A DNA stretch of 64,000 nt from an uncultured Gemmatimonadaceae bacterium (GCA_963781585.1 CAWAGQ010000007.1:192001-256000), one strand, 5' to 3'. Positions 1 to 63,669 are shown, counted from the first letter of the stretch. The notes: a model not told the origin generated them from the letters alone. Made by a program: numbers and translations.

Positions 1-1444
1 ACTGCGACACGGCCAGGTCGCGATTCTTGATAGCGGCAAAATCGGCCGGCACTTCCATGGTGAGCACGTTCTTCGTGTCCAGGCCGGGGTCGACCGCGGC
101 CAGGCGCTTCATCGAGCGCACCAGAAGGCCCGCGCCCGTCAGCAACATCACGGACACGGCCACCTGGGTGACGACCAGCCCCTGCTGCAATCCGCGGCGG
201 CGCCGGGTGCCGGTAGACCGCGCCCCCGCCGAGCTCAGGCCCGCGCCGAGCTGATGATCGCGGCCGATGCGGGGCGCGAACGAGAGCAGCACGGCCACCA
301 GCAGCGCCACCAGCATGGTAAACGCGAGCACCACCAGGTCCAGGCGAATTTCACCGGCGCGGTTGCTCAGGCGGGCGGTGAACGCGGCGAGCATCCCGAC
401 GCCGCTGAACGCGATCACGAGTCCGAGCACCGCGCCCGCCAGGGCCAGCGTGAGGTGTTCGGCCAGGAGCAGGCGCCGCAGGCGCGCGGTCCCGGCGCCT
501 AACGCGGCGCGCACCAGCATCTCGTGCTCGCGGCGCACGCCGCGCATGAGGGTGAGGTTGGCCACGTTCGCGCAGGCGATCACGAGCACGAACGCCGCCA
601 CGCCCATGAGCAGCCAGAGGGTGAGCCTGGCATCCTTGCCGAGGATTTCCTTGAACGGCGTGAGCGTCACCGCGTAGCCCGAGCCGGCGTCGTAGACATC
701 GGGATACTGGGCGTGGACGCGCGCAGTGATCGCGGCGACATCGGCGCGCGCCTGTTGCACCGTCACGCCCGGCGCCAGCCGCGCGATCATTTCCGTCATG
801 CGGTGGGTGCGGCCCTGGATCATCAGCGCGCTCACGTGGTGCTCGCTGATGGCCATGTTCATGATGGCGTCGACCTTCTGCGGAAAGAATGGCGCCGGCT
901 GGAGCACGCCCACCACCGTGGCGTTCTTGCCGCCAACCCGAAGGCTGCGGCCCACGACGGAGGAGTCGCCGCCGAAATGACTCTCCCAGTAGTCGTGCGC
1001 CAGCATCATGACCGGCGCCGCGCCCGCTCCGTCGTCGTTCGCGCTGAAGCCGTGTCCGATGACCGGGCCCAGTCCCATCACGTTGAAGTAGTTGGCGGTC
1101 ACGAGGCCGACGCTGACCTGCGATGCGCCCTGATCCTCCACCAGGTTCAGCGTGAACGGCGAGTACTCGGCGATGTCGGCGAGGGTGCGGGACTGCTGGC
1201 GGAAGTCGTTGATCTCGGGGACCGAGAACGCGATGTTGTCGCTGCCTTTGGCCAGCGCCGAATGGCGGAGGTACATGAGCCGGTCGCCGTCGCGATGGGG
1301 CAGGGGCCGCAGAAGCGCGCCCCGGACCGCGCTGAAGATCGCGGTATTCGCGCCGATGCCGAGGCCCAGGGTGAGGACCACGGCGATGGTGAAGCCGGGG
1401 GACCGGAGGAGGCTGCGGAAGGCGTAGCGGAAGTCAAGCGGCAT
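1..1444 (-). CDS. ABC transporter permease, MacB/FtsX-duplicated (ADOP-like); 3' end runs off the window
   Basis: Read manually: ATG at 1444 gives MPLDFRYAFRSLLRSPGFTIAVVLTLGLGIGANTAIFS, later ANVANL..RE..VRAALGA, which are hallmark motifs and match paralogues at 3650 and 57734. Confidence 0.9.
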   Translation of the reverse strand, partial: MPLDFRYAFRSLLRSPGFTIAVVLTLGLGIGANTAIFSAVRGALLRPLPHRDGDRLMYLRHSALAKGSDNIAFSVPEINDFRQQSRTLADIAEYSPFTLNLVEDQGASQVSVGLVTANYFNVMGLGPVIGHGFSANDDGAGAAPVMMLAHDYWESHFGGDSSVVGRSLRVGGKNATVVGVLQPAPFFPQKVDAIMNMAISEHHVSALMIQGRTHRMTEMIARLAPGVTVQQARADVAAITARVHAQYPDVYDAGSGYAVTLTPFKEILGKDARLTLWLLMGVAAFVLVIACANVANLTLMRGVRREHEMLVRAALGAGTARLRRLLLAEHLTLALAGAVLGLVIAFSGVGMLAAFTARLSNRAGEIRLDLVVLAFTMLVALLVAVLLSFAPRIGRDHQLGAGLSSAGARSTGTRRRRGLQQGLVVTQVAVSVMLLTGAGLLVRSMKRLAAVDPGLDTKNVLTMEVPADFAAIKNRDLAVSQ

Positions 1445-1610
1445 GGGAGCGGGTGGTGGAAGGCTTCATTCTAACCATTCGGGGTGGGTTGGCCACTCCC
1501 TCGAGCAGGCTGTTCCCCGGATGCGCGCGAACCGCCTCGAGCGCTTTCTGCGCGGGCGGCAGCACCTCAGCGCCCGTAGCGCCAGCGCCAGTTTCGCAGC
1601 CCGGCCCCAT

Positions 1611-1961
1611 TCAGGCCGTCCACCAGAGATACCCGGCCACAAACACCAGAAACACCGCGAATGCGCGCTGCAGGTCGCGCGGCGGCATCCGCAGCGCCGC
1701 GTGGGCCCCGACGAACGCGCCGACCAGCAATCCCAGCGCGACGATCGTCGCCACCCGGATGTCCACCAGCCCGTTCCGATAGTACTGCCAGGCGCCTAAC
1801 GCGCCAACCGGGAGCAGCAGCGAGGCGAGCGACGTACCGGTCGCCTTCTCGGGCGCGAACCGCGCCACCACCACCAGCGCCGGAACGATCACGACGCCCC
1901 CACCGATGCCAAACAGGCCGGACAGCACGCCGGCAACGAGACCGATGAACAGGAATTCCAC
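1611..1961 (-). CDS. Half-size TauE/SafE (TSUP) family membrane protein
   Basis: GLFGIGGGVVIVP and ATGTSL motifs; GTG start with GGAG upstream. Confidence 0.85.
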   Translation of the reverse strand: MEFLFIGLVAGVLSGLFGIGGGVVIVPALVVVARFAPEKATGTSLASLLLPVGALGAWQYYRNGLVDIRVATIVALGLLVGAFVGAHAALRMPPRDLQRAFAVFLVFVAGYLWWTA

Positions 1962-6211: not shown

Positions 6212-7552
6212 CTACCATTGATAGGCGTGCGGCCCGGGCGGCGAGAGAAAGAACGTCGACGTCGCCGCGTACGCCGGGAATGCCTCGCGGTACCGGGATT
6301 CCCAGTTGGTCACGAACTCGCGCGACCCGGCCACGGGAATCAGCGCCCACACGCTCCCACCGAATCCGCCGCCGAACGCCGATGCCGCCACGGCGCCGCA
6401 CTCCCGCGCCAGCCGCTGCAGCGTGATGGTCTGGGGGACCTGATTCCTCAACAGCCGCTCTGCGACCTCCTGGGAGCGATCGACCACCAGCCCGAACTCG
6501 CTGGTGGCGCCGCGGTTCAACGCCTCGGTGGCGGCAGGAATGATCTCGTAGGTCTCGACGAGGAAGTGATCGAGCCGGTCGCGCAGGTCCTGCGCGGTGA
6601 ACTGGCCGTCCCCGCTCTGCTCGGCGAGAGCCCGCAGGCGACCGGGGGCGTCGTGCGAGCTGTTGATCGCTTCGGCGAGCGTGACATCCCACCGCTTGGT
6701 GGCGCGATTCCAGATCTGCACCAGCCGTTCCACCGCCCGCGACGCGCGGTTGTACGCCTCGAGCACCGAGCCGGTCTTGTCCGAGGGCACGCCGCTCACG
6801 CCTAACGCGAAGATGAACTGCGGCATCAGGCGGATGGCCGCTTCGCGGCGCACGGGCGTGAAGGCGAACCGGCTGATCTTCCCCGCTTCGCAGCACAGGA
6901 TCGCCGTATGATCCTCGCTCCCCCCGAGCGTTCCGACGCCCGCATCGGCCGCGAACTGGCGGAACATGTCCCCGCTTTCCACCGCGCCAAGGTACGCGGC
7001 CAGCTCCTCACGGGACGATACGGCCTTCCGGAACTCGGCTTTGCTGCGCAGGTCGTTGGCCCGCGAGAGGGCGATGAAGGTGCCGATGACGAGCGCGCTC
7101 GAGCTGCTCAAACCGGCGGCCGCGGGCAGGTCGCTGGCCAGGACGATGTCCACGCCGCGTTTGACGCCGGGGAAGTCGCGCACCAGCCGGCGCACCACGG
7201 TGGTGACGTAGGACTCCCACGAGCCCGGATCGGGCGTGCCGTTGGCGCCGAGCGACGTCTCGTAGCGGTCGCCAAGTCCCACATCCACCACCCGGACCAG
7301 GGCGTCCTTCCGAGGCGCGGCGCGGATGCAGAAGCCGCGCTCCACCGCGCAAAGCAGACTCCGGCCCCCGCCGTAGTCGGTATGCTTGCCCAGCACTTCG
7401 ATGCGGCCTGGTACCCAGATGGACCAGCGCCGGGTGGCGTTCGCGTCCATGGCGTCGAGGGCCTTGTCGCAGCGCGTGTACAGCGGACTCTTGGCGGCGG
7501 CGTTGCGCGGCGACATGCCGAGGGCACGGAGTTGATCAGTGGCGAGGGTCAT
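6212..7552 (-). CDS. GHMP sugar kinase, galactokinase-like
   Basis: PGRIEVLGKHTDY, LPAAAGLSSSSAL ATP loop, FGGGFGG. Confidence 0.85.
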   Translation of the reverse strand: MTLATDQLRALGMSPRNAAAKSPLYTRCDKALDAMDANATRRWSIWVPGRIEVLGKHTDYGGGRSLLCAVERGFCIRAAPRKDALVRVVDVGLGDRYETSLGANGTPDPGSWESYVTTVVRRLVRDFPGVKRGVDIVLASDLPAAAGLSSSSALVIGTFIALSRANDLRSKAEFRKAVSSREELAAYLGAVESGDMFRQFAADAGVGTLGGSEDHTAILCCEAGKISRFAFTPVRREAAIRLMPQFIFALGVSGVPSDKTGSVLEAYNRASRAVERLVQIWNRATKRWDVTLAEAINSSHDAPGRLRALAEQSGDGQFTAQDLRDRLDHFLVETYEIIPAATEALNRGATSEFGLVVDRSQEVAERLLRNQVPQTITLQRLARECGAVAASAFGGGFGGSVWALIPVAGSREFVTNWESRYREAFPAYAATSTFFLSPPGPHAYQW

Positions 7553-7561
7553 CGGGGGGGA

Positions 7562-10367: not shown

Positions 10368-12563
10368 ATGCCCGCGCCGGAAATGCCTCTGCGCTCCCTC
10401 GTTCGACTCGGCTCCTCTCTGACAGCGGTGCCGTTCGGTCTGCTCATCGCCGCCCGGGCGCCGTCGGTGGATCGATCGCCGGCCGGCCACCGTCCGGCGG
10501 CGTCGCAGGGACCCGTATCGCGCCATACCCTGATGCCGGTCCCAGCGTCGGTGACCTGGGGCGAGGGGGAATACCGGCTGGACAGCAGCACCACCATAGG
10601 CCTAACGAAGTTCATCGACACCCGCCTGCGAAGCGCGGTGGAGCGCAGCGCGGCGCGCCTCGAAGCCCTCAGCGGCCTGGTCTTCGTGCCGCCGGCCGAT
10701 CATCCCCCGTTCACGCCGCGCATCGCCATCACCGTGGATGCCGCCGGACAGCGCGTGCAGACGGTGAGCGAGGACGAGTCGTACTCGCTCGCGGTCAACT
10801 TCACGGGAGCAACGCTGTACGCCCACACCGTGGTCGGCGCCCTCCGTGGACTGGAGACGCTGCTCCAGCTGGTCGAGTCCGACCGCGACGGCTTCTATCT
10901 GCCGGCGGTGCGCATCGAGGACATGCCGCGATTCCGCTGGCGCGGCCTGCTGATGGACGTCAGCCGCCACTTCATGCCGGTCGACGAGGTGAAGCACACG
11001 CTCGACGGCATGGCGGCCGTCAAGCTCAATGTCTTCCACTGGCACCTGACCGACGATCAGGGCTTCCGGGTCGAGAGCAAGCGCTACCCGCGCTTGCAAG
11101 GTTCGGGTTCGGACGGCCTCTACTACACTCAGGCCGAGATCAGGGAGATCGTCGCCTACGCCCGGGACCGCGGCATCCGCGTCATCCCTGAATTCGACAT
11201 GCCCGGCCATACCACGTCGTGGCTGGTCGGCTACCCGCAGTACGCCAGCGTCCCCGGGAAGTACGAGATCGAGCGCCACTTCGGCGCCAGCGACGCCATC
11301 TTCGACCCCAGCCGCGAACCGCTCTACACGTTCATCGACCGGTTCATCGGCGAGATCGCGCCGCTCTTTCCCGATCACTACTGGCACGTGGGCGGCGACG
11401 AGGTGGATCCGAAGCAGTGGAACACGCCGCGCATCCGCGCCTTCCGCAAGGCGCACAAGCTCAAGAATGCCGCCGAACTGCAGGTGTACTTCAACCGCCG
11501 CCTGACGCGGATCCTCGCCAGGTACGGCAAGCGGCTGGTCGGATGGGACGAGGTCCTCCAGCCGAACCTGCCGAAGACGAGCGTGGTGCAGTCGTGGCGG
11601 GGCGTGGACTATCTCGCGAAGTCGACCGCTGACGGGTACGCCAGCATTCTCTCGGCTCCGTGGTATCTCGACCACATCGACCCCGCCGAGCAGCTCTACA
11701 TCGCCGACCCGATCCCACCCACCACCGAGCTCACGCCCGAGCAACAGGCGCTGATCCTTGGCGGCGAGGCCTGCATGTGGGCCGAGCACGTGGCTTCGGA
11801 AACGGTGGACTCGCGCATCTGGCCGCGCCTGGCGGCCATCGCCGAGCGCCTCTGGTCGCCGCGGGACGTGATCCAGGTGAACGACATGTACCGGCGTCTC
11901 TGGGTGATGAGCGATCGGCTGGAACGCCTCGGCCTGATGCACGAGTCGCACACCAATCGCATGCTGCGGCGGATCACCGAGGACGACAGCACGCGTGAGG
12001 CGCTGGCGACAATGCTCGAGGCGGTGGGGCCGCCAAGCTTCGGCCAGCGGGTACGCGGGCAGCGCACCGATCAGCTCACGCCCCTGGTTCGCGTTCTCGA
12101 CGCCGCGGTGCCCGATCCCTGGGGACGATGGGAGACGTCGATGCTGGTGGATCGGTTGCTGAGCGACACGCTGACGCCGCCCGCGCGCATCGATACGACC
12201 ATCACCCTCGATGCCGCGCGTGCACGGCTGACGGAGCTGTTCACCCGGTGGCGTGACGCGGCCAATCCGGTACGGATCGGCGCGGACTCCACACCGCTGG
12301 TGGCCGAGGCAGTACCGGCGGCGGCCGCGCTGTCGCGGACCGCACAGGCGGGCCTGGAGGCGTTAGGCTATCTGGGCGGCAACGAGCGGCCGGCTCCGGG
12401 CTGGTCGGATGCGCTGCTGGCCGAGCTCAAGGGATACGAGCAGCCGCAGAACCTGCTGCGGGTGATGATCGTGCAGCCGGTGGAGCGGTTGGTCGCGGCG
12501 GCGGAAGGTGTTCACGGGTCGCAGGCCACAGGCATGGGCCAAAGGCCACAGGTTGGTCGATAG
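10368..12563 (+). CDS. GH20 beta-N-acetylhexosaminidase
   Basis: WRGLLMDVSRHF, FHWHLTDDQG, PEFDMPGH, HVGGDE catalytic pair, GGEACMWAE; start could be 10383. Confidence 0.93.
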   Translation: MPAPEMPLRSLVRLGSSLTAVPFGLLIAARAPSVDRSPAGHRPAASQGPVSRHTLMPVPASVTWGEGEYRLDSSTTIGLTKFIDTRLRSAVERSAARLEALSGLVFVPPADHPPFTPRIAITVDAAGQRVQTVSEDESYSLAVNFTGATLYAHTVVGALRGLETLLQLVESDRDGFYLPAVRIEDMPRFRWRGLLMDVSRHFMPVDEVKHTLDGMAAVKLNVFHWHLTDDQGFRVESKRYPRLQGSGSDGLYYTQAEIREIVAYARDRGIRVIPEFDMPGHTTSWLVGYPQYASVPGKYEIERHFGASDAIFDPSREPLYTFIDRFIGEIAPLFPDHYWHVGGDEVDPKQWNTPRIRAFRKAHKLKNAAELQVYFNRRLTRILARYGKRLVGWDEVLQPNLPKTSVVQSWRGVDYLAKSTADGYASILSAPWYLDHIDPAEQLYIADPIPPTTELTPEQQALILGGEACMWAEHVASETVDSRIWPRLAAIAERLWSPRDVIQVNDMYRRLWVMSDRLERLGLMHESHTNRMLRRITEDDSTREALATMLEAVGPPSFGQRVRGQRTDQLTPLVRVLDAAVPDPWGRWETSMLVDRLLSDTLTPPARIDTTITLDAARARLTELFTRWRDAANPVRIGADSTPLVAEAVPAAAALSRTAQAGLEALGYLGGNERPAPGWSDALLAELKGYEQPQNLLRVMIVQPVERLVAAAEGVHGSQATGMGQRPQVGR

Positions 12564-12712: not shown

Positions 12713-14122
12713 ATGCTGAATCGATCTATCCGCTTGGCAGCTATGGCGCTTGTGGGCCTCTCGTCGGCGGCGCCCTGCCAGCGCCCCGACACCGTCCGCC
12801 TCTCCGTCGAAGACGCCGTCCGGCGCGTCCTCACGCAGAGCGACGAAATCCGTGTCGCCCGCGCCCAGGTCGACATCGCGGACGCGCAGGTGACCACCGC
12901 CCGCGCCGCTTCGCTCCCCGTTGCGCGGGTAAGCGGTAACTACTCGCAGACCGTGCTGAATGCACGGGCGGCGATCGTGAGCAGTCTGTTTGGACAGAGC
13001 TACAACTACACGTCGAACGTCAACATCTCGCAGCCGATCTTCCAGGGGGGACGCATCTGGGCGGGGATGCGGGCGGCCGGCGACACGCGCGGCGCCTCGC
13101 AGCTCACCCTGGCCGAGACGAAAGCCCGGCTGTCGGTGGACGCCCAGCGGGACTATCTGGGCGCGCTGCTGGCCCGCGAGCTGGTGGACATTCAGGAGCG
13201 GAACGCCGCGCTGGCCGATGATCGACTCACCCAGGTGGAGCAGCTGGAGAAGGCCGGGCGCGCTTCGCGCTACGACGTGCTCAAGGCCCGGGTGGACCGG
13301 TCGAATCTGGAACCGGGGCTGCAGCAGGCGCGGAGCGACCGCGAGCTGGCCGACATCACGCTGCGCCAGCTGCTCAATCTGCCTAACGACGCTCCGATCG
13401 TCCTCGCCGTGGAGCTCGACACCGCCGCGCTGCGTTCGACGGTGCAGGCGGTGGCCGCCGACAGCGACCGGACCGTGGTGCGGCCGGCGGTGCGCGCCGC
13501 GACGTTGTCGCTCGATGCCCGACGCGAGGCGGTCCGTGTGGCCCGCGCCGACTTCCTTCCCACCGTCAGCGTCTTTTTCCAGACCGGATACACGGCGCTG
13601 CCGGCGTCGCCCGGCTTCCCCACTGTCTGGGGGCACACATCGGAGGCGGCCTGCCCGCCCGGATCGACCGCCGGCAAGGTCTGCCAGAACAACGGCTGGT
13701 ATCCGGACCGGTCGTTCGGCGTGCAGGTGCAGTGGTTCGTGTTCGACGGACTGAAGACCAAGGGGAACCTGGATCTGGCGTCGTCGAACGAACGATTGGC
13801 GCGGACGCAGCTGGACCTGCAGAAGGAGACGGTGGCGGTCGAGCTCGCCCGGGCCGAAGCGGAATTCACGCGGGCCGAGACGACGTTCGATGCGCAACAC
13901 CAGAACGCGAACGAAGCCGAAGAAGCATATCGTATCGCGGCGCTTCGCTTCGAGCGCGGGCTGGGGACGCAGCTGGAGGTGAACGACGCGCAGGCGTCGT
14001 TGTTTACCGCGCGGGTGAATGCCGCCCGCGCTTCCATCGACTACTATCTTGCGGCTGCGGAGCTGGCGCGCGCGCGTGGGCACGACATCCCACTCCCGCC
14101 CACGCGACCCGCCTCACGCTGA
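12713..14122 (+). CDS. TolC-family outer membrane efflux protein
   Basis: Signal peptide, LSVEDAVRR, RFERGLGTQLEVNDAQ; first gene of RND operon. Confidence 0.9.
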   Translation: MLNRSIRLAAMALVGLSSAAPCQRPDTVRLSVEDAVRRVLTQSDEIRVARAQVDIADAQVTTARAASLPVARVSGNYSQTVLNARAAIVSSLFGQSYNYTSNVNISQPIFQGGRIWAGMRAAGDTRGASQLTLAETKARLSVDAQRDYLGALLARELVDIQERNAALADDRLTQVEQLEKAGRASRYDVLKARVDRSNLEPGLQQARSDRELADITLRQLLNLPNDAPIVLAVELDTAALRSTVQAVAADSDRTVVRPAVRAATLSLDARREAVRVARADFLPTVSVFFQTGYTALPASPGFPTVWGHTSEAACPPGSTAGKVCQNNGWYPDRSFGVQVQWFVFDGLKTKGNLDLASSNERLARTQLDLQKETVAVELARAEAEFTRAETTFDAQHQNANEAEEAYRIAALRFERGLGTQLEVNDAQASLFTARVNAARASIDYYLAAAELARARGHDIPLPPTRPASR

Positions 14123-14132
14123 GAGACACTCC

Positions 14133-15443
14133 GTGGCTCGACCGTTCATGAAGGGGCTCGCCCTCGCCGCGACCCTGTCGGCGATGATCGCCTGCGGCCA
14201 GTCGGGCGCCGCCGCCTCGGCCAGCAATCCGCCGGCCGCCGATCCGCCGGGCGATTCGGTCGGCACGCCGGCCGGCTCGCGCCCCGGCGGGGCCGGACGC
14301 GCGGGAGGACGCGGCGCCACGTCGGTGGTCCTCGGACCTAACGACGTGGCCGACGTGACCCGCGGGCCGATCGAGGACGCGATCGCGATCCAGGGCGACC
14401 TCAAGCCGATCGAGGAGATCGCCGTGCGCGCCCGGATCGAGGGGAACGTCGAGGCCGTCACCGTGCGCGCGGGCGACCGCGTGACGAAGGGGCAGGTGCT
14501 GGCGCGGTTCGAGAACAGCAATCAGGAGAGCGCGCGGAAGTCGGCCGAAGCCGATCTGGAGTCGGCCAAGGCCGACGTCGCCAACAGCCAGTGGAACGCC
14601 GACCAGTCGGCGGAGCTGTTCAAGGCCGGCGCGATCCCCGAGCGCGACCTGCGCACCGCCCAGCAGACGCTGGTGGCCGCCCAGGCGCGTCAGGCAGCGG
14701 CGGAAGCGCATTTGCGCGCCACTACCCAGGACTTCGATGATACCCGGGTGTTGTCGCCGACCACGGGCTCGGTGAGCGTGCGTAGCGTGGAGACCGGCGA
14801 GCATGTGGCGCGCGGCGCCACCGTGTTTACCATCGTGCGCAACGACGTGCTCGAGCTCGAGGCGGCGCTGCCGGCGCGGTTCGCGGGCGATGTGCGACCG
14901 TCGCAGCCCGTGCGGTTCAGCGCCGCCGGCCGCGACCTCGACGGCAAGGTGGCGCGGGTCAGTCCGACCATCAACCCGGCCAACCGGTCGGTTTCGGTCT
15001 ATCTCCAGCTGCCCAATGCCGACGGGAGCCTCAAGGGGAACACGTTCGCTACCGGCCGGATCATCACCCGGCTGGTGCCTGACGCGATGATCATTCCCAC
15101 GGCCGCGGTCCGCTACGTGCAGGCGCAGTCGCAGCCGTTCGTCTACCGCATCTTGAACGACGTGGTGGACTTCGCCCCGGTGCAGCTCGGCATCATCAAC
15201 GAAGTCGCCGGACTGGCCCAGGTGATCGATGGGTTGAACGAGGGCGATGAAATTGTGGTCGGGAACATCGGCGCGCTGGGGCGGGGTGTGAAGGTGACGA
15301 TCGCGCGCGCACCGGAGCCGGGGCGGAGCCGCCCGATGCGGAACGGTGGTTCCGGCCGCCGTGGGGGTGGGAACGGCAAGGGTCGAGGCGAGCCCCGCGC
15401 GCCGCGCGGCGGCGACAATCCGGTGCCGAAGCCGCCAGGCTAA
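14133..15443 (+). CDS. RND periplasmic adaptor (MFP)
   Basis: VRAGDRVTKGQVLARF lipoyl-like repeat, coiled coil, GLNEGDEIV; start could be 14148. Confidence 0.9.
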   Translation: MARPFMKGLALAATLSAMIACGQSGAAASASNPPAADPPGDSVGTPAGSRPGGAGRAGGRGATSVVLGPNDVADVTRGPIEDAIAIQGDLKPIEEIAVRARIEGNVEAVTVRAGDRVTKGQVLARFENSNQESARKSAEADLESAKADVANSQWNADQSAELFKAGAIPERDLRTAQQTLVAAQARQAAAEAHLRATTQDFDDTRVLSPTTGSVSVRSVETGEHVARGATVFTIVRNDVLELEAALPARFAGDVRPSQPVRFSAAGRDLDGKVARVSPTINPANRSVSVYLQLPNADGSLKGNTFATGRIITRLVPDAMIIPTAAVRYVQAQSQPFVYRILNDVVDFAPVQLGIINEVAGLAQVIDGLNEGDEIVVGNIGALGRGVKVTIARAPEPGRSRPMRNGGSGRRGGGNGKGRGEPRAPRGGDNPVPKPPG

Positions 15444-18400: not shown

Positions 18401-18664
18401 ACGACCTGCGCGATGATCTTCGGCATGCTGCCGCTGGCGCTCGCGTTAGGCGAGGGGGCGGAGCAGCGGTCGCCGATGGCGCACGCGGTGATCGGCGGGC
18501 TGGTGACGTCGACGCTGCTGACGCTGTTCATCGTCCCGGTGGTGTACACGCTGCTCGACGATCTGGCGGCGCGGGTGCTGGGGCGCAAGCCGGTGCCGCT
18601 GGCGGTAGTGCTTCCACCGCAGAGTCCCGAGGACAGCGAGCCGAGGCCGGCGTTCGGGGACTGA
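15446..18664 (+). CDS. RND efflux permease (AcrB/HAE1-like)
   Basis: 1072 aa; IKRPV, GLLIDDAIVVRENI, KNGIL, RLRPIIMT. Confidence 0.96.
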   Translation: MFLSDVSIKRPVFATMMMVALLVLGLVSYRRLAIDEYPDVTYPVVSVSTTYPGASPEVMERDVSRPIEEALNTVQGIREINSSSQEGSSNVRVNLELGVNVLEGQQEVVAKVARIRRQLPPDANDPVVMRFDPNDRPIMSISVQSSERSIRDLTDLAEQVIAIGIESIPGVGGVNVVGGTSRQIRVELNPDALRAYEISPTQVTQALSRENQEVPAGRVYRGDVEKLVRITGRIVSPRAFNDIVVATRANVPVRVRDLGTVIDGNAEARSAAFMDTTRAVSVEVLKVSGTNTVEVADAVRAKVAEMEHSMPPDIKFILVRDDSEKIRSSLSDVQKTIMLGAVLTILIIYLFLNSWRSTVITGLTLPVSVISAFFAMWLFNFTINTMTLLALSLAIGLLIDDAIVVRENIVRHIEMGKDHYKASMEATSEIGLAVLSTTLAVVAVFVPVAFMGGQIGKIFYQFGVTVAFAVLVSLFVSFTLDPMLSSVWADPELEHGGHAETRKRTRNPIRRFAFAFDDGFERVADRYRNWLAWSLRHRAIVVTVALVAIGAAFAIYPLLGFTWIPPYDAGEFNVSVRTPPGSRLEYTIARTQEVAVFLRRDPDVQFTYISIGGGGRGGPNNGQIYVRLCEMVGAIVAPCRAHRTRSEADIETDLRKQLAAMPSVRASIQPQRSIFGGGGHTPIQIYVQGPEETRLKIAADQVLQAMRTVPGMAEPTSSDEGQIPQLNVQVDRQQAWAAGLGIASISSTLQPLFQGQRATRWQDANGYEHDVMVVYPDSMRVSPEDVARIPVLSANIDLRTGQAITVPLAQVADIRAGVGPQQIDRRSLERQISVSAGVLPDYNMGDVANAATKVINAIGLPPGYHTVFGGDVQNLEETKGYVMEAIILAVVFIYLILASLFGSFIQPLAIMLALPLSFVGVALALLITKGSLNIMSMIGIIMLMGLVTKNGILMIDFMNHERDRGVERTKAILSAARIRLRPIIMTTCAMIFGMLPLALALGEGAEQRSPMAHAVIGGLVTSTLLTLFIVPVVYTLLDDLAARVLGRKPVPLAVVLPPQSPEDSEPRPAFGD

Positions 18665-19313: not shown

Positions 19314-20627
<1,314 letters not shown>

Positions 20628-22971: not shown

Positions 22972-23198
22972 AGGACGCGACTGCCGGGCCACCTAACGCT
23001 TCGGCGATTATGCCAGTGTGCGCGAGCAGTGCCACGACCTGTCCCGTGCCGTGCAGGGGAGGGGGGCCGATGCCCTGTGGTTCAAGGGGATTGGACCCGT
23101 TCCCTGCCACGTGGGTGCCTTCCGGGACATCGACCGCCGCACACGAGCGAGAACGCATCGATTCGAGGAGGTTCTGATCAGGCGAAATGCACGCGGCA

Positions 23199-24624: not shown

Positions 24625-24721
24625 GCGAAAGCACCCTGCCAAGCCTGTCGTTGTTTCGACTCTGCCTGCCACCGTACCTGTTCGTGACACCGTGGATTCA
24701 GAGCGCGGAGATCAGCTCGCG

Positions 24722-25000: not shown

Positions 25001-25002
25001 GG

Positions 25003-49252: not shown

Positions 49253-50503
49253 TCAGGCCCGCTCCGCCGCGGGCCCGGCAGGGTCGGCGACGCGCGAGCG
49301 CGTCGCCGACCAGTACAGGCCAAAGCACCCCACCGTCAGCAGCGCCGCGGTGAAGAACGCGGCGCCGGGCACCTGGACCGGGGAGTCCGCCGCGGTGAAG
49401 TGGCCGAATAACCCCGTCATGATCGGCGGTCCGATAATCGAGCTGAGCGAAAACAGCGCGGCCACCGCGCCCTGCAATTCACCCTGGGCGTCAGGCTCCA
49501 CCCGGTGCGACATGATGGCGTTGGTCATCGGCATGACGATGGCGCCGACCAGCCAGGTGGTGAGCCACGCGAACATCATCCACCCCGCCGTCGCCGCGCC
49601 GTATCCGGCATAGCCTAACGCGGCGACGAAGACTCCCAGCAGTCCGGCACGGCGCTCGCCGACCCGTCGCACCAGCAGCCGCGGCATCGTCGTCTGGGCC
49701 AGCGTCATCACCGCCCCGGCCGCCGCCAGCGACAGGCCGATCATCGCTTCCGACCAGCCGAAACGATACCTGGTGTAGAAGCTCCAGGTGGTGGGCATCA
49801 CCTGGTTGGCGAGCATCCAGAGAAACATCGCGCCGAGCAACCCGGACACCAACGGCTGCCGCCGCATCTGGCGCAGCGTGCCGAGAGGATTGGCGCGCGT
49901 CCAGTGAAATGGACGCCGTCGCTCCGCTGGCAGCGATTCCGGCAGCACGAAAGTGCCGTAGAGAAGATTGAGCCCGCCCAGGATCGCGGCCGCGAAGAAG
50001 GGCGCCCGCGGTCCCAGTCCGCCCAGCAGGCCGCCGATCGCCGGCCCGGCAATGAACCCCACGCCGAACATCGCGCTGATCACCCCGAAGTGCTGCGCGC
50101 GCTTTTCCGGTGGACTGATGTCGGCCACGTACGCGTAGGCGGGCGTGAACGAGGCGCCGGCCATTCCCGAAATCGTGCGTCCAAGAAAGAGCCAGCCTAA
50201 CGTGGGCGCCAGCCCCATGATCAGGTAGTCCACGCCCAGGGCACCGATGGCGATCAGCAGGACCGGCCGGCGGCCGAAGCGGTCTGAGAGATTTCCCAGC
50301 ACCGGCGCACACAGGAACTGCATGGTGGCATACACGAACGCCAGCCACCCGCCGTCGACCGCCGCCTGACTCACCCCCTTGCCCGTCAGCTGCACGAGCA
50401 ACGTCGGCAGCACCGGGATGATCAGCCCGAAGCCGACGGTGTCGAGCAGCAGCGTGATGGCGACGAAGGCGAGTGCGTGGCGCCCGGGCGCGCGCGTCGG
50501 CAT
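49253..50503 (-). CDS. TetA/TCR-like MFS transporter
   Basis: LDTVGFGLIIPVLP, GNLSDRFGRRPVL, AYVAD, LPESL, QGELQG. Confidence 0.92.
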   Translation of the reverse strand: MPTRAPGRHALAFVAITLLLDTVGFGLIIPVLPTLLVQLTGKGVSQAAVDGGWLAFVYATMQFLCAPVLGNLSDRFGRRPVLLIAIGALGVDYLIMGLAPTLGWLFLGRTISGMAGASFTPAYAYVADISPPEKRAQHFGVISAMFGVGFIAGPAIGGLLGGLGPRAPFFAAAILGGLNLLYGTFVLPESLPAERRRPFHWTRANPLGTLRQMRRQPLVSGLLGAMFLWMLANQVMPTTWSFYTRYRFGWSEAMIGLSLAAAGAVMTLAQTTMPRLLVRRVGERRAGLLGVFVAALGYAGYGAATAGWMMFAWLTTWLVGAIVMPMTNAIMSHRVEPDAQGELQGAVAALFSLSSIIGPPIMTGLFGHFTAADSPVQVPGAAFFTAALLTVGCFGLYWSATRSRVADPAGPAAERA

Positions 50504-57733: not shown

Positions 57734-60238
57734 CTACTCGTAGCGCAGCGCCTGCATCGGATCGACGCGCGAGGCGCGCAGCGCGGGGATCTCGCCTGCC
57801 GCGAACGCGACCACCGCCAGGAACACTGCCGCCATCGCGACCACCAGCGGATCGGTGGACGACAACCCGTACAGCAGCGACCGCGCCACGCGTGCCAGGG
57901 CGAATGCCGCCCCAATGCCCACCACTCCGCCGATCACGGTCATCACCGCCACCTGACGCAGTACCATCCGTCGGACCCGGCGCCCATCGGCGCCTAACGC
58001 CATGCGGACGCCGATCTCCCGCGTCCGCTGCGCCACCGTGTAGGCCAGCACGCCGTAGAGCCCCACCGCCGCCAGGATCGTGGCCAGCACCGCAAACGCG
58101 CTGGAGAGGGTTCCGATCATCCGGTCGAGAAAGACGTTGTCCTGAACCTGCTGGGGCATCGTCTTGAGTTCCTCCACCGGCAGGTTCGGATCGAGCCGGG
58201 ACACCACGCCGGGCACGGTGCGCAGCAGCAACGCCGGATCCTGCGAGGTCCGCACGTAGAACTGGAGGTACCCGAGATCGTCATCCTGACGGTACGGCCG
58301 GAAGAACAGCGGCGGCACGTCCTGTTTCACGTCGGAGTACTTGGCGTCCTTCATCAACCCGACGATCTCGGTGTCGAGCTCGCGGTTCGGGCCACCGCCG
58401 GTGGCCAGGTGCTTGCCCACCGCGTCGGCGCCGAGGTGGAACTTCTTCGCGAACGCCTCGTTGACAATGGCGACCTTGGGCGATCCGGACACATCGGCCC
58501 GGGTGAATTCCCGCCCCGCGAGCAGGGGGATGCCGAGGGTCGTCAGGTATCCCGGACCGACCTCGTTGAACCGCGAGTTGGAGTCGATGTCAGGGCCGGA
58601 CTGGAATCCTTCCACCGAGACGTCGTTCCCCCAGTTGCTGCCGGCCAGCAGCGCCACCAGCCCACCGCTCACGCCGGTCACCCCGGGGAGCGCGGTGAGC
58701 TCGTCCTCCAGACGGGTGAACAGCACTCGCGAGCGCGCCGGATCGTAGCCGTTGAGCGCTGGTGAAATGCCGAAGGTGAGCACGTGGTCCACCTTCACGC
58801 CGAGATCCACGCGACTCACGTTGAGCAGGCTGCGAACGAACAGCCCGGCCACCACCAGCAGCGTCATCGACAGGGCGATCTGCGCGGTGACCAGTGAACT
58901 GCGAAACCGCGCGGCGGAGCGCGCCCCCGACATCTGGCCGGCATTGGCCCGGATGGTCGACACCAGGTCGGGTCGCGTGCTGTGCAGTGCCGGGAAGAGC
59001 CCGAACAGCATACCGGTGCCTAACGAGAGCAGGCCGGCGAACAGAACGGCCGAGGAGTCCATATGGAACTGCAGCGTGGTCGCGACCTGGGCCGGCAGCA
59101 GCGACATCACCAGTCCAAGCGTCCACTTCGCCATCACCAGGCTCACCACGCCGCCCAGCACCGCCAGCAGCATGGACTCGGTCACCAGCTGCGAGAGCAA
59201 TTGCCGGCGTCCGGCCCCCAGCGACAGGCGCACCGCCATCTCCATCGACCGGTTCGCCCCCCGGGCCATCAGCAGATTGGCGATGTTGGCGCAGGCGATC
59301 AGCAGCACGATGCCGGTGATCGAGAACAGGAAGACCAGCGGCGTACGTGCCTCGTGGTGCACCGAACTCTGGCCCCGCCGCCCATCCGACAGCGCGACCT
59401 CCTTCGCCTTGAAGCGCGCCATCGTCTGGTCGCTCATTCCCTTCTGAAGCGGCGACTCGACGTCGTTGATGATCGGGTGGTAGATCCGGTTGATCCCGGC
59501 CTGGGCCTGCTCGATCGACACGCCCGGCTTCAGTCGCGCGAACAGATACACCCAGTAGCTGCGACGATTCTCGAATCCCTGCCAGGTGGGCATCAGGACC
59601 TGGCGCATCGTGATCGGCACGAACACGTCCGGCTCCGCACCCAGCGTCGTACCCGTGAAGCCGGGTGGGGCCACGCCGATGATCGTGAACGACTGCCCGT
59701 TCACCACCAGCGTCTTGTTCAGGACCGAGGAGTCGGCGCCAAGCTTCGTCTCCCAGTACGGATAGCTCAGGACCGTCACGAAATGTCCACCGATGTTCCT
59801 GTCGTCATCGACCGTGATCAGCCGTCCCAACGCCGGGAGAAGGCCGAGGACCGGGAAATACGACCCCGACACCATCACGCCCTCGGCGTTCAATGTCTGA
59901 CCGTTGTAGGCCAGGTTGGCGCCGAACAGGCGATGTGCCGCGAGGCCGGTAAAGGGGCTTTGCGACGCGCGCTCGAGGTCGCGGAACATCGGATAGCTGA
60001 ACACCGTGTTGCAGTCGCCGGCCTGGCTGCACGACTGCGACCCGGGGTTCGGACCCGGCGCCGCGAGGTTGACCAGCCGCTCGGGCTCGCGAACCGGCAG
60101 GGGACGGAGCAGGATCTGGTTGAACATCGAGAAGATGGCGGCATTGGCCCCGATACCAAGCGCCAGCGAGAGCACGGCCACGCCGGTGACGAACGGCGTT
60201 CTGAACAGCGTTCGGAGTGCGAGCCGTGGATTCACCAT
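57734..60238 (-). CDS. ABC transporter permease, MacB/FtsX-duplicated
   Basis: LGIGANAAIFS, IACANIANL, RTREIGVRMALGA, VDPMQALRYE. Confidence 0.93.
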   Translation of the reverse strand: MVNPRLALRTLFRTPFVTGVAVLSLALGIGANAAIFSMFNQILLRPLPVREPERLVNLAAPGPNPGSQSCSQAGDCNTVFSYPMFRDLERASQSPFTGLAAHRLFGANLAYNGQTLNAEGVMVSGSYFPVLGLLPALGRLITVDDDRNIGGHFVTVLSYPYWETKLGADSSVLNKTLVVNGQSFTIIGVAPPGFTGTTLGAEPDVFVPITMRQVLMPTWQGFENRRSYWVYLFARLKPGVSIEQAQAGINRIYHPIINDVESPLQKGMSDQTMARFKAKEVALSDGRRGQSSVHHEARTPLVFLFSITGIVLLIACANIANLLMARGANRSMEMAVRLSLGAGRRQLLSQLVTESMLLAVLGGVVSLVMAKWTLGLVMSLLPAQVATTLQFHMDSSAVLFAGLLSLGTGMLFGLFPALHSTRPDLVSTIRANAGQMSGARSAARFRSSLVTAQIALSMTLLVVAGLFVRSLLNVSRVDLGVKVDHVLTFGISPALNGYDPARSRVLFTRLEDELTALPGVTGVSGGLVALLAGSNWGNDVSVEGFQSGPDIDSNSRFNEVGPGYLTTLGIPLLAGREFTRADVSGSPKVAIVNEAFAKKFHLGADAVGKHLATGGGPNRELDTEIVGLMKDAKYSDVKQDVPPLFFRPYRQDDDLGYLQFYVRTSQDPALLLRTVPGVVSRLDPNLPVEELKTMPQQVQDNVFLDRMIGTLSSAFAVLATILAAVGLYGVLAYTVAQRTREIGVRMALGADGRRVRRMVLRQVAVMTVIGGVVGIGAAFALARVARSLLYGLSSTDPLVVAMAAVFLAVVAFAAGEIPALRASRVDPMQALRYE

Positions 60239-60614: not shown

Positions 60615-61442
60615 CTACGGCTTCACAACCCAGAAGCCCGGGTCCTGATCGGTGAAATCCTTGGGCAGATAGCTCATCCGCGGGGCGAACTGCAGGATGA
60701 TGTCCGTGGTCGAGATGACGCCCGCCGACGAGAGCTGGTTGAACATCTTCTGGCGGTCCGCGGTCATGGCCTTCTGCATGGCCGCATCGTCCGGTCCGGG
60801 ATCCAGTTCGGTGAGCGACTTCATCAGCCGGAACACCATGAACGTGGGCCCCGGCATTCCGGACATGACCTGATAGGTGGTCCAGTTCGCGGACGCCTTT
60901 GCATCGGTCACCACGGTCCGATACAGTTTGGCCGCCTGCTCGAAGTCGGTCTCGTGACCCGGACGCACCCGGAATATGATGACAGCGAAGTAGCGACCGT
61001 TGGGCACGGACATGCCGCCGGGCAGACTGAGATCTTCCCGGTAGCGCGCGATGAACGATCGTGTTTCACTCACGTTCTCGGCGTCGGAGTGGTTCAGCAG
61101 CCCGCTTGCCGCCTCGAGCCCGGGTGAATCAGTGACCGCCTTGTCCTGCGCCTCGAGTTCACCCATCGAACCCAGCGGCGTGAAGTACCACGCCTCGTTA
61201 GGCCCGGTTTCGGTCGTGGTGCCGAGCCAGTACACCGGCACGTTGGCCTGGCGGAACGTCTGGGCCCACTGCTGCTCCAGCGCGGTATGGGCGCCGGCCC
61301 GCCCCGCACGGACGGTTTCGATCCCCACCTGAATCACCGGCGGCGGGGCGTTCGGATTCTGCGCGGCGAGGTGGGCCGACGCGCACAGCGACAGCAGGGG
61401 GACCGCGGCCAGCGGCCGCATCCAGCTCATTCCAGGGTGCAT
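60615..61442 (-). CDS. Secreted hypothetical protein, two NIPSNAP-like repeats
   Basis: GGAGG RBS, signal peptide, VRAG/VRPGH repeats, REDLS/APRMSY. Confidence 0.65.
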   Translation of the reverse strand: MHPGMSWMRPLAAVPLLSLCASAHLAAQNPNAPPPVIQVGIETVRAGRAGAHTALEQQWAQTFRQANVPVYWLGTTTETGPNEAWYFTPLGSMGELEAQDKAVTDSPGLEAASGLLNHSDAENVSETRSFIARYREDLSLPGGMSVPNGRYFAVIIFRVRPGHETDFEQAAKLYRTVVTDAKASANWTTYQVMSGMPGPTFMVFRLMKSLTELDPGPDDAAMQKAMTADRQKMFNQLSSAGVISTTDIILQFAPRMSYLPKDFTDQDPGFWVVKP

Positions 61443-61695
61443 CGGAACCTCCAGGGGATGTGGGGAGAAGAAGCGCCCTGAGTGCGACTCCAGGAGCTTG
61501 CCCGAAGCCACTCTCGGCGCGGCCGCCAGAGGGATAGTGCTCGCGCGGCACGCCGTGGCAGCGCCCCGCAGGACGCAGCACTTCGCAAAGGTGCACAATC
61601 CCGAGCCGCGCGCAAGTGCCGCCGCTTGAACCGCACGGTGCGGCGACCGAAGTTCACGCCATCCGCCTCGCCGGATTCCTCGCCACGGGCTGACC

Positions 61696-63669
61696 ATGTC
61701 CCACCACTCAATTCGCGACGTTGCGCTGCGCGGTGTCCGGATCCTGTACGCCCGACTCCTGCCGCGTCGAGCAGGGTACGCGTCGCGCGCCACGGTGGTC
61801 CTGCTCGCGACCGCGGCGCTGTTCGGCGCTGTGCGTCGGGGTCGCCGATCGACGGACGCGGTGGGCGGTGCCCACGCCGCGTCCGGCGTCGGCCTCGGCG
61901 CTGGTCCATCCGCCGGGGTGCGACGCGGTGCGCTTGTGCGAAATGCGGTCGCGCACGATCTCTCGGCGCGCCTCGGTCCGATCGGGACAGCGGGCGGTTT
62001 CGACGGCGAACGACAGGGCGCGACTGCGCCGCCGCCGCCGGCCATCACCGTACCGGCGGGATCGCGAGACATCGAACAGACGTCCCAGGGCACGCGCCCC
62101 GCGGCGGAGTTCGTGGCGCGGTTCGATGGCCTCGGCGCCGGGTTCGCCGGGCCACAGGGCACCGTCACCGCGCGCAATCCATCCGACAACAGTCTGGCCG
62201 TGGGTCCGGACCACATCGTCCAGATCGTGAACTCGCGGATGGCGATCTTCAGCAAGGCGGGGCACCGATACGATTCCACCGGCCAGGTGCTGTACGGGCC
62301 GGTGCCTACCAACAACGTCTTCCGGGGCTTCGGCGGGTCGTGCGAGGCACGGAACAACGGGGACGCCGTGGTCCGCTACGACCAGCTGGCGGGGCGGTGG
62401 CTGATCGTGATGCCGATCTTCTCGCGCGGAGACGTTAGGCAGGACGACCAGCCGCCCGGCCGCTCGGGTGAGCCGGCCCGGCGCAGCCGGCCCGGCCAAC
62501 CCGGGCAGCCGGGAGCGTCGGTCCGCCTCTTCGAACCGCCGCCGCCGGACCCCGCCGACTCGGGACGTGGCGGGCGCCCGGGGCGGGGTGGGGGTCGCCA
62601 GACCGGCCGCGGCTCGCCAGGTCCCCAGGGGCAGTACGCGATGTGCTACGCCGTGAGCGTGGGCGACGACCCTTTCGGACCGTACTACCGCTACGAGTTC
62701 GTACGGCCGCTCTTCCCCGACTATCCGCGGCCCGCCATCTGGCCCGACGGCTACTACGTGCCGACCAGCACCGGCGATGACGTCATCCAGAAGCACGCCT
62801 GCGTGGCCGACCGCGTGCGGATGCTGAATGGGCTGGATGCCACCGAGCAGTGCGTGGTGATCGACCGCGTCAACTTCCTCAACAACGCGGACCTCGACGG
62901 CATGGCCCTTCCGCCGCGCGGCGCGCCGAACATCATGATGGCCACCGGCGGCACGCAGTTGAAGAAGGAGTTCGAGGGAGCCGCGATCTACGTCTGGACC
63001 TTTCACGTGGACTGGGCGGATCCGGCCGGAACGCGCGTCGCGGGGCCGACCCGGATTCCGGTGGCGCCGTATCACTATCTGTGCGACGGGCAGCTCACGA
63101 GCTGCGTGCCGCAGCCCGGCACCGATCGGCGGCTCGACGCCCAGGGCGACAAGCTGATGGCGCGGCTGGTCTACCGTCGGGTGGGGAACCGCGAGTGGAT
63201 CGTGGCCGTGCATTCGGTGAATACTGCGGCCGGCGGGGGCGGCGTGCGCTGGTACCAGTTCACGTTAGGCAGGGGACGCCGGGTGGCGCTCACCCAGCAG
63301 GGCACCTACGCCCCCGACAGCTTCTTCCGATGGATGGGCAGTCCGGCCATCGACCGCCGCGGCAACATCGCCATCGGCTACTCGTTCGGCGGGACGCCCA
63401 ATTTCGCCGGGCAGCGGTTCGCGGGACGCCTGGCTGACGATCCGAAGGGCCTCCTCACCCTCCGTGAGGCAGTGCTCGCGGAGGGTGAGGAGGTCCAGAC
63501 GAACACCCTGCGCTGGGAAGATTACGCCCAGACCGCTGTCGACCCGAGCGACGACTGCACGATCTGGTACGTCGGTGACTATATAATGAAAGGCGCCGCA
63601 GGCTATTCCACCCGCATCGGCGCCTTCCGGATGCCCGGATGCGGTTCCGCGCGAGACGCACGACGCTGA
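61696..63669 (+). CDS. Hypothetical extracellular protein
   Basis: SDNSLAVGPDHIVQIVN, YDQLAGRW, FPDYPR, RWEDY..VDPSDDCTIWY; start uncertain. Confidence 0.7.
   Translation: MSHHSIRDVALRGVRILYARLLPRRAGYASRATVVLLATAALFGAVRRGRRSTDAVGGAHAASGVGLGAGPSAGVRRGALVRNAVAHDLSARLGPIGTAGGFDGERQGATAPPPPAITVPAGSRDIEQTSQGTRPAAEFVARFDGLGAGFAGPQGTVTARNPSDNSLAVGPDHIVQIVNSRMAIFSKAGHRYDSTGQVLYGPVPTNNVFRGFGGSCEARNNGDAVVRYDQLAGRWLIVMPIFSRGDVRQDDQPPGRSGEPARRSRPGQPGQPGASVRLFEPPPPDPADSGRGGRPGRGGGRQTGRGSPGPQGQYAMCYAVSVGDDPFGPYYRYEFVRPLFPDYPRPAIWPDGYYVPTSTGDDVIQKHACVADRVRMLNGLDATEQCVVIDRVNFLNNADLDGMALPPRGAPNIMMATGGTQLKKEFEGAAIYVWTFHVDWADPAGTRVAGPTRIPVAPYHYLCDGQLTSCVPQPGTDRRLDAQGDKLMARLVYRRVGNREWIVAVHSVNTAAGGGGVRWYQFTLGRGRRVALTQQGTYAPDSFFRWMGSPAIDRRGNIAIGYSFGGTPNFAGQRFAGRLADDPKGLLTLREAVLAEGEEVQTNTLRWEDYAQTAVDPSDDCTIWYVGDYIMKGAAGYSTRIGAFRMPGCGSARDARR

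Follow-up and report, generated by a model that had tools for sequence, protein, structure and literature searches.

In a 64-kb stretch of DNA from an uncultured Gemmatimonadaceae bacterium (64,000 nucleotides, G000:C7:192001-256000; hereafter "the window"), we found an asymmetric 8-base word, GCCTAACG (reverse complement CGTTAGGC), that is imposed on the DNA against codon usage, in every stop-free frame as well as outside open reading frames (ORFs). A strong directional force thus acts on it site by site, at the level of the DNA. The window lies inside a 5.72-Mb assembly, G000, that comprises 17 contigs at 67% G+C, with 93.5% completeness and 7.2% contamination. The original prediction for this sequence had described the heptamer CCTAACG/CGTTAGG as over-represented, and had proposed a methylation- or repair-driven site, an uptake sequence, or a nucleoid protein site as its cause. 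Among these three classes, the uptake sequence fits best. We tentatively read the word as a tag akin to the uptake signal sequence (USS) of Pasteurellaceae and the DNA uptake sequence (DUS) of Neisseriaceae, which may have accumulated by transmission bias. Chance, a coding artefact, a repeat family, a replication-polar signal, a RecBCD/AddAB-Chi system, and the methylase and Vsr families that we examined were excluded as explanations.

Within the window, every one of the 26 heptamers reported earlier was recovered at its coordinates, with no extra copies (14 on the plus strand and 12 on the minus strand). Dinucleotide-preserving shuffles of the window yielded 2.68 ± 1.66 copies (maximum 8), and none of 100 shuffles reached 26. 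For the copies inside ORFs, the comparison is 22 observed against 2.01 ± 1.44 under synonymous codon shuffling within each ORF (maximum 8 in 500 shuffles). As had been predicted, these 22 copies occupied several codon frames, namely TTA-GGN (Leu-Gly, 16 copies), CCT-AAC (Pro-Asn, 3), CTA-ACG (Leu-Thr, 2), and GTT-AGG (Val-Arg, 1). The word-bearing genes of the window are ordinary ones; they encode a hexosaminidase of family GH20, a pump of the AcrB family, an ABC transporter, and a permease of the MacB/FtsX type.

The enrichment extends to the whole genome. G000 contains 1706 heptamers, compared to 646, 252, 118, and 156 expected from Markov models of order 0, 1, 2, and 3, respectively; the order-0 figure corresponds to 7.2 copies per 64 kb, in agreement with the earlier composition estimate of about seven. 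The base in front of the heptamer was G in 1442 cases (A in 183, C in 53, T in 28), and likewise in 20 of the 26 window copies. Accordingly, the true unit is the octamer GCCTAACG/CGTTAGGC: the heptamer proposed at first is indeed enriched, but it is not the full word. With 1442 copies, versus 44 to 90 expected under order-1 to order-3 models, this is the most over-represented octamer of G000. None of the 17 contigs fell below 1.9 copies per 10 kb or exceeded 3.4, and hence the word is not limited to a few, possibly contaminating, contigs.

To quantify the codon cost, we used a set of 4063 ORFs covering 82% of the genome, called by length and by the G+C pattern at third and second codon positions (GC3/GC2), which is a crude procedure in which a few short calls are probably wrong. 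Synonymous codons were shuffled inside each ORF, such that the protein and the codon counts of each gene were kept; this null is conservative because the inflated count of TTA codons is retained. Over 30 shuffles it produced 54.1 ± 5.0 in-ORF octamers, about twentyfold fewer than the 1096 observed, and 141.6 ± 9.1 in-ORF heptamers versus 1277. TTA makes up 1.0% of the leucine codons in G000, where a tRNA-Leu(UAA) gene is present, and 697 of its 1490 occurrences (47%) lie inside CGTTAGGC; for CGTTAGG the number is 808 (54%). By frame, 695 of the 1442 octamers read xCG-TTA-GGC, 272 nnG-CCT-AAC-Gnn, 68 nGC-CTA-ACG, and 51 nnC-GTT-AGG-Cnn, while 356 lie outside called ORFs. When we counted the sites at which the word could be written synonymously, it was carried by 696/4522 (15.4%) of the [SPTA]-Leu-Gly sites, 273/862 (31.7%) of the X-Pro-Asn-[VADEG] sites, 70/2409 (2.9%) in the Leu-Thr frame, and 56/3382 (1.7%) in the Val-Arg frame, i.e., its use differs five- to ten-fold between codon frames. 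The word xCG-TTA-GGC is the commonest encoding of [SPTA]-Leu-Gly, followed by CG-CTC-GGC with 596. The presence of the word in four frames and outside ORFs, its survival of the codon-aware null in the window and in the genome, and its hold on about half of all TTA codons point to selection or drive on the DNA rather than on the protein, in line with the earlier view.

Next to no probability remains that the excess is an artefact, be it of amino-acid content or codon usage, of a family of dispersed repeats, or of contigs from a contaminant. Coding constraints do shape where the word is placed: in bins of 50 kb, its orientation correlates with that of the genes (r = -0.51), since a gene that uses the TTA-GGC frame carries the written form of the word on its antisense strand. 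Yet an artefact is already refuted by the codon null in genome and window (in the genome 54 copies versus 1096, on a conservative null), by the even contig density, and by the flanks. Around the genome octamers we found no conserved flanks of the kind that surround a dispersed repeat element (repetitive extragenic palindrome or miniature inverted-repeat transposable element), and only codon periodicity was visible outside positions -1 to +8.

The word also showed no replication polarity. The 1442 octamers split into 718 forward and 724 reverse copies. As a replichore proxy we used the local GC skew, which is weak in G000 and hence imperfect. The ratio of sense to antisense copies was 131:279 in genes on the locally G-rich strand (presumed leading) and 93:197 in lagging genes, giving an odds ratio of 0.99. 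No bias appeared relative to GC skew in copies outside ORFs (97:120, p = 0.14), or relative to transcription in intergenic copies between tandem genes (84:107). Once the gene strand is accounted for, no replication effect is left by this proxy, which rules out a replication-polar signal and upholds the earlier remark that the word lacks the polarity of Chi or of the FtsK-orienting polar sequences (KOPS).

Comparison with a congener revealed that the word is conserved. We aligned 300 kb of G001, a genome of the same genus, to G000 at 88.7% identity, and found 61 words shared, 13 in G000 only, and 12 in G001 only. Thus, 61 of 74 G000 words (82%) were kept in G001, as compared to 221 of 433 control octamers (51%; odds ratio 4.5, p = 2e-7); the ten control octamers were individually kept at 41 to 65%, and all 8-mer windows at 45.5%. 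Where only one species had the word, the other often differed at two or three of the eight bases. DNA richer in G+C had more octamers (rho 0.46): their density was 3.5 per 10 kb where the local G+C was 68 to 70%, and 0.33 where it was below 62%. The density was 2.43 per 10 kb in DNA shared with G000 versus 1.50 in unshared DNA (p = 0.09). The empty stretch that had been noticed at about 24.8 to 31.6 kb of the window is real, spanning 24.7 to 31.6 kb, and is probably more recently acquired DNA.

The 8-bp core has graded edges. A pyrimidine precedes it in 79% of the copies (C in 51%, T in 28%) and G follows at +8 in only 12%. Several single-mismatch neighbours exceeded the codon null as well (ACCTAACG 8.2-fold, GCCTAACA 3.5-fold, GCCTGACG 2.9-fold, and GCATAACG 2.3-fold), and the remaining neighbours that contain TAA stayed below onefold, on a null that is inflated for them. 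One of these variants, GCCTGACG, is a single transition away from GCCTAACG, occurs 1166 times in ORFs where 404 are expected, and was kept between G000 and G001 at 65%, above the other control words; the putative reader of GCCTAACG may also recognise this variant, though less well. Copies of the octamer are spread evenly along ORFs and avoid each other at short range. Gaps below 200 bp numbered 20, versus 70.6 expected, and gaps below 500 bp numbered 68, versus 169.6 (the minima of the block shuffles being 46 and 138), so that both values lie below all 200 shuffles. Relative to an exponential, gaps occurred at about a quarter of the expected frequency below 300 bp, at 0.59-fold at 300 to 500 bp, and at 1.3-fold at 1 to 2 kb, independent of the orientation of the copies.

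We scored a genome as rich in the word when its octamer count was at least twice that of the reversed-word control. By this measure, 7 of 31 relatives were rich: G000, G001 (915 copies), G005 (605), G009 (6360 in 5.1 Mb), G014, G015, and G030, the last from another family. Most of the others had 6 to 65 copies, below their own control. An even draw of 401 genomes of the phylum contained 16 rich ones, all in families f1 and f2, and none among the 136 sampled from families f4-f12. Over both samples, the rich genomes belonged to three families of one order, Gemmatimonadales. Genus g42 was mixed, with 3479 to 4141 copies in three genomes and 66 in a fourth. Within this genus, the rich G233 and the poor G286 shared only 70 to 77% DNA identity and were thus too distant for decay paths to be read.

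The word is also found in a second phylum. When one genome per species was scanned for pairs of copies 200 to 230 bp apart, at least 126 stretches were recovered, and the 80 listed were dominated by Gemmatimonadaceae together with the labels Chthoniobacterales (an order within Verrucomicrobiota), Verrucomicrobiae, and Spartobacteria. The loci labelled Gemmatimonadaceae matched G000 best in DNA, at 67 to 75% identity, consistent with its family. Five Verrucomicrobiota genomes carried 2140 to 5186 copies versus 257 to 332 for the controls. The description of the word as lineage-specific therefore stands only in part: it is patchy within Gemmatimonadales but recurs in Chthoniobacterales-type Verrucomicrobiota. 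In the verrucomicrobial genome G413 (391 kb sampled, 59% G+C), 469 copies were counted, at a density of one per 681 bp; since 97% of them have A at +8, the word here is the 9-mer GCCTAACGA, and the consensus reaches further, to YGCCTAACGAGT. The sampled Gemmatimonadales kept the pyrimidine at -1 and varied at +8, and G009 was laxer at the first G. A search for horizontally shared genes between G000 and the 391 kb of G413 gave top identities of at most 73%, which looked like those of ordinary conserved genes.

Viral contigs contain the word too. Among the 120 loci that an IMG/VR scan for paired copies returned, mostly with two or three copies each, three contigs had copies that are scattered and do not resemble each other in their flanks: L178 (62% G+C; 18 copies in 20 kb), L195 (12 in 7.8 kb), and L166 (7 in 13.6 kb). 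The 14 ORFs picked in L178 all lie on one strand and include a 1351-aa protein, a weak match to tail-fibre assembly, and an endolysin-like protein, and 11 of the 14 ORFs tested had no PHROG match. From its gene content, L178 is plausibly a phage or prophage module for tail and lysis, although this is not proven. Four other loci (L170, L212, L167, and L183; 30 to 58% G+C) displayed one-strand repeat arrays with conserved flanks around GCCTAACG, which are probably cassette arrays or other repeat families rather than dispersed words.

USS and DUS are short asymmetric words that occur in hundreds to thousands of copies, equally on both strands and with no replication polarity. They are written into genes in a few frames at a codon cost, are conserved in relatives and scarcer in foreign DNA, and are restricted to certain lineages, with flanking-base dialects and enrichment of one-off variants. 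In Neisseria, the DUS receptor is ComP, and intergenic inverted pairs of DUS act as terminators. Our word resembles them in being asymmetric, abundant, strand-neutral, costly in codons, conserved, scarcer in foreign DNA, and surrounded by enriched variants. In its restriction to certain lineages and its dialects it resembles them in part, being patchy within one order with differing flanks but having the same core in Verrucomicrobiota. A USS/DUS-like tag fits best as an account of its codon-defying abundance, strand neutrality, conservation, amelioration, variants, dialects, patchiness, and short-range avoidance. The word differs from USS and DUS in its lower density in G000 (1 per 4 kb), in having hardly any intergenic inverted pairs, in sharing one core with a second phylum, and in being equal to an integron attC box (see below).

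If this reading holds, GCCTAACG, preferably with a pyrimidine before it and a base other than G after it, would be a duplex DNA tag for a putative sequence-specific protein. Tagged alleles would be transmitted better than untagged ones, and the word would thereby accumulate in resident DNA. Most likely, cells would take up and recombine DNA of their kin preferentially when it bears the tag, in the manner of USS and DUS. We infer a transmission bias that works on each site rather than selection on the organism, since thousands of sites that each cost a rare codon would be hard to hold by selection at the level of the cell, an argument that stems from the "molecular drive" literature on USS. That the bias acts at DNA uptake is likewise what we infer.

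Several observations weigh against an uptake tag. A literature search that combined Gemmatimonads with uptake sequences found no report of uptake or transformation. No candidate for an uptake receptor was found, with the channel protein ComEC being the only uptake protein searched for, and ComEC was present in all 32 genomes of a panel that we assembled for candidate readers (16 rich and 11 poor Gemmatimonadales, and 5 rich Verrucomicrobiota), in rich and poor alike, and is thus uninformative on the word. The same core in two phyla is not expected from the dialects of USS and DUS, and calls for a reader that is transferable or very conserved. Dispersed copies in viral contigs are easier to obtain by an intracellular force, unless the phages are temperate. 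The intergenic inverted pairs that are typical of DUS are rare, with 12 within 200 bp in G000, and the short-range avoidance was not found between copies in the 391 kb of the dense G413. Finally, the exact identity with the attC box is left as a coincidence.

An alternative is a site for a cytoplasmic protein that acts on the chromosome, either a nucleoid-associated protein or an organiser of loops, or a nuclease or recombination machine other than RecBCD and AddAB that the word, as a "self" signal, would halt or divert, with the sites kept by cell selection. We regard this alternative as unlikely, though not negligible. It would suit the asymmetric core with its graded tolerance at the edges, the roughly even density on all 17 contigs, and the conservation between congeners. 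The avoidance below 500 bp is consistent with a footprint or with diminishing returns, and dispersed copies in viral contigs fit a signal that is useful to any DNA living in the cell. However, tiny per-site selection could hardly keep thousands of sites that use a 1% codon, the word lacks replication polarity, and no cluster of sites marks a possible reader gene (the densest group in G000 has three copies within 600 bp). Nor were the nucleases known to read such words found. RecC (PF04257) was not found in G000, at its 93.5% completeness, and occurred in only 7 of the 32 panel genomes, being absent from the other 25 and from most rich ones, whereby we rejected RecBCD-Chi. AddAB was rejected since G000 yielded no AddAB-sized PD-(D/E)XK protein, with PF12705 giving two weak matches in ORFs of 557 and 576 aa.

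With Chi and with KOPS and the architecture-imparting sequences (AIMS) that are linked to FtsK, the word shares its status as an over-represented octamer, and its density is similar to that of Chi in E. coli (about 1 per 4.5 kb). It differs from them in the lack of co-orientation with replication and in the lack of RecC and of an AddAB-sized nuclease in G000, and from Chi also in being built from rare rather than common codons. The Chi octamer of E. coli itself, GCTGGTGG, occurred 1504 times in G000 versus 267 expected from an order-1 model. It groups with the CTG-GTG-rich words that head the order-1 lists, and common codons seem the likely cause of its excess.

A functionless product of biased mutation or repair, whether methylation-coupled very-short-patch repair or another sequence-specific gene-conversion bias, is decidedly unlikely in our view. 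Its product would build up in any DNA that is replicated in the cell. Such a process would explain amelioration with residence time and the viral copies, its site-by-site action can override codon usage, and a mobile enzyme would fit both the patchiness and the recurrence in a second phylum. The model for this class is the highly iterated palindrome HIP1 (GCGATCGC) of cyanobacteria, a hyper-abundant palindrome that is linked to cognate methyltransferases. Like HIP1, the word is a hyper-abundant octamer imposed on coding sequence and patchy among relatives; unlike HIP1, it is not a palindrome, and none of the G000 methyltransferases examined follows its distribution. The drive would also run towards A/T in a 67% G+C genome, which is the opposite of Vsr-type repair, and mutation that is independent between sites does not predict the avoidance below 500 bp.

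We examined the methyltransferase and Vsr families PF01555, PF02384/PF07669, PF00145, PF02086, and PF03852. G000 has no PF01555 or PF02086 methylase. Its two Eco57I-type methylases were rejected as readers because they do not track the word: a TaqI-like protein of 517 aa has close homologues in 5 of the 32 panel genomes and weaker matches in 6 more, and an Eco57I/MmeI-like protein of 1079 aa is present in nearly all Gemmatimonadales, rich or poor, and weakly in one of the five Verrucomicrobiota. The latter exists in G000 as two copies that are 90% identical, and this ~1080-aa type is kept at 37 to 58% identity in nearly all Gemmatimonadales searched, which is unusual for an enzyme of the restriction-modification type. 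Vsr, found in 8 of the 32 genomes, does not follow the word: it is present in 2 of the 16 rich Gemmatimonadales, in 3 of the 11 poor ones, and in 3 of the 5 Verrucomicrobiota. G000 has a single Vsr, which is joined to a helix-turn-helix (HTH) domain and a C5 cytosine methylase in one 779-aa ORF (a Dcm-Vsr fusion), next to a gene for an EcoRII-like nuclease. The module sits inside a 24.6-kb word-free gap and hence resembles a mobile unit of restriction and modification that brings along a repair domain. C5 methylase and Vsr were accordingly rejected as drivers, given that the sole Vsr lies in an EcoRII-type module on a word-free island and that Vsr is patchy. Taken together, the non-palindromic word, the methyltransferases that fail to track it, and the scattered Vsr disfavour the HIP1-like origin that the original prediction had named.

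The word coincides with a recombination site. The attC sites of integron cassettes have the consensus RYYYAAC for box R'' and GTTRRRY for box R', and GCCTAAC is the R'' box of attC(aadB) (PMC12901181). GCCTAAC fits the former and GTTAGGC the latter, so that the word is identical to an attC R''/R' box. G000 itself has an integron 5 kb before the window, with attC-like boxes like the word across 160 to 185 kb of the contig. In the word-poor G021, 22 of 23 GCCTAACG copies in a one-strand array with a period of ~550 bp begin canonical attC sites of 94 to 140 nt that end in GTTAGRC (20 GTTAGGC and 2 GTTAGAC) and have a conserved inner palindrome. In Gemmatimonadales, adding one base to the R'' box thus gives the word, and in cassette arrays the R'' side reads all eight bases. 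Such periodic clusters in poor relatives are integron cassette arrays, and their alternative reading as a tandem-repeat gene was rejected. The inner palindrome of the G021 array is GCGCTTAAGCTGCGGCGC ... GCGCCGNCAGCTTCAAGCGC, and its sites fall into two or three length classes.

These findings raise the option that the word is a half-site (R box) for a recombinase of the integron-integrase family, with chromosomes studded with secondary, attG-like sites for cassette landing or pairing. The box identity (including the aadB match), the G021 array, and the use of the same boxes by the G000 integron all speak for it, and if the specificity of the recombinase is conserved, it would be clear why two phyla share one core. 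Nevertheless, we consider it quite improbable. Dispersed copies are single boxes without partner or hairpin (only 12 inverted pairs within 200 bp in G000 versus ~1600 single boxes, and a few of these pairs fold like attC), and most lie in ordinary genes, where cassette insertion would destroy the gene. Nor does the integrase IntI co-vary with the dispersed word. Of the 31 relatives, 18 had IntI above the cut-off, including many that are poor in the word; it was below the cut-off in the rich G005 and G015, in pieces in G009, and not found in G413, though G297, G114, G316, and G412 have it. We thus rejected IntI as the reader: its presence does not suffice for abundance of the word and, within the limits set by incomplete assemblies, is not required for it either. 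An integrase-like gene linked to IS91 was also rejected, being present in G000, G001, and G014 but also in the word-poor G021. An integrase-like gene of 303 aa exists in three identical copies in G000 (Table 1).

Combining the two lines, one may imagine a portable "self-tag" system, in which a reader with a conserved specificity for the R box of integrons (GCCTAAC/GTTAGGC) was exchanged between Gemmatimonadales and Chthoniobacterales and, in each host, fills the chromosome with thousands of copies, as well as the phages that reside there. We regard this as a long shot. If true, chromosomal DNA and integron cassettes would share one recognition signal for uptake or recombination in abundant soil bacteria. 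That some mechanism beyond an uptake tag and the alternatives set out above is at work appears rather unlikely to us.

To our knowledge, sequence-tagged recognition of self DNA is established in only two families of Proteobacteria. If the word is an uptake tag, it would be a third case, which would make self-tags a general feature of bacterial genome evolution. It would be an unusual case, concerning two dominant, little-studied soil phyla, with about half of the occurrences of a rare codon placed in the word, and with identity to an integrase box. A literature search for the octamer in both orientations and for the 9-mer GCCTAACGA found no paper on the word among the matches inspected, which covered part of the total and were primers or oligonucleotides. 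The word can serve as a marker that assigns phages and contigs to hosts and as a simple bait for its putative reader, and it gives a reason to examine natural transformation in Gemmatimonadaceae.

Table 1. Copies of the word in the window and other features named in the text. Plain numbers are window positions of the heptamer; "octamer" denotes a full GCCTAACG on the strand given, and sense or antisense is relative to the called ORF.
Position	Strand	Feature	Context
498..504	+	octamer (497-504)	outside called ORFs
1795..1801	+	octamer	antisense in called ORF, GCG-TTA-GGC (Ala-Leu-Gly)
6801..6807	+	octamer	antisense, GCG-TTA-GGC
10601..10607	+	octamer	sense in GH20 hexosaminidase gene, GGC-CTA-ACG (Gly-Leu-Thr)
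12361..12367	-	octamer	antisense in GH20 gene, GCG-TTA-GGC
13382..13388	+	octamer	sense, CTG-CCT-AAC-GAC (Pro-Asn)
14337..14343	+	heptamer only, A in front	sense, CCT-AAC
15842..15848	+	heptamer only, C in front	sense in AcrB-family pump gene, CCT-AAC
18444..18450	-	octamer	antisense in AcrB-family gene, GCG-TTA-GGC
19611..19617	-	octamer	sense in minus-strand ORF, CGC-CTA-ACG (Arg-Leu-Thr)
21020..21026	-	octamer	antisense, ACG-TTA-GGC
21401..21407	-	octamer	antisense, CCG-TTA-GGC
22992..22998	+	heptamer only, A in front	outside called ORFs
24720..24726	-	heptamer only, C in front	outside called ORFs
24727..31623		word-free stretch	lower G+C (0.63-0.65); 7/8 tested ORFs without Pfam family
31624..31630	-	heptamer only, T in front	antisense, ACG-TTA-GGA
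38049..38055	+	octamer	antisense in short called ORF, GCG-TTA-GGC
43650..43656	+	octamer	outside called ORFs
46522..46528	-	octamer	antisense in ABC transporter gene, GCG-TTA-GGC
48238..48244	-	heptamer only, A in front	antisense in ABC transporter gene, TCG-TTA-GGT
49614..49620	+	octamer	antisense, GCG-TTA-GGC
50196..50202	+	octamer	antisense, ACG-TTA-GGC
57993..57999	+	octamer	antisense in MacB/FtsX-type permease gene, GCG-TTA-GGC
59019..59025	+	octamer	antisense in MacB/FtsX-type gene, TCG-TTA-GGC
61196..61202	-	octamer	antisense in called ORF, TCG-TTA-GGC
62433..62439	-	octamer	antisense, GAC-GTT-AGG-CAG (Val-Arg)
63263..63269	-	octamer	antisense, ACG-TTA-GGC
52802-52833		tandem heptad repeat AGGCCAA x 4.6	intergenic; also at 49317-49325
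G000:C7:160000-187000		integron	
G000:C7:185885-186829	-	IntI gene	
G000:C7:172407		integrase-like gene (303 aa)	
G000:C7:183006		integrase-like gene (303 aa)	
G000:C13:309327		integrase-like gene (303 aa)	
G000:C6:144811-147699 (L326:1-2889)	- (in L326)	Eco57I/MmeI-like protein	
G000:C2:158108-160996		Eco57I/MmeI-like protein	
L327:661-3000, within G000:C7:476337-479658	+	HTH, C5 methylase, and Vsr (779 aa)	
L327:2984-3982	+	EcoRII-like nuclease gene	after the Dcm-Vsr fusion
L328:1-20000 (G021:C95)		cassette array	

A second word of the window has no relation to GCCTAACG. It is seen at the AGGCCAA heptad repeat listed in Table 1, and CTTTGGCCT/AGGCCAAAG occur 285 times genome-wide, versus ~8.5 expected. 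Their flanks are patterned with a 7-bp period, which indicates short heptad arrays scattered across the genome.

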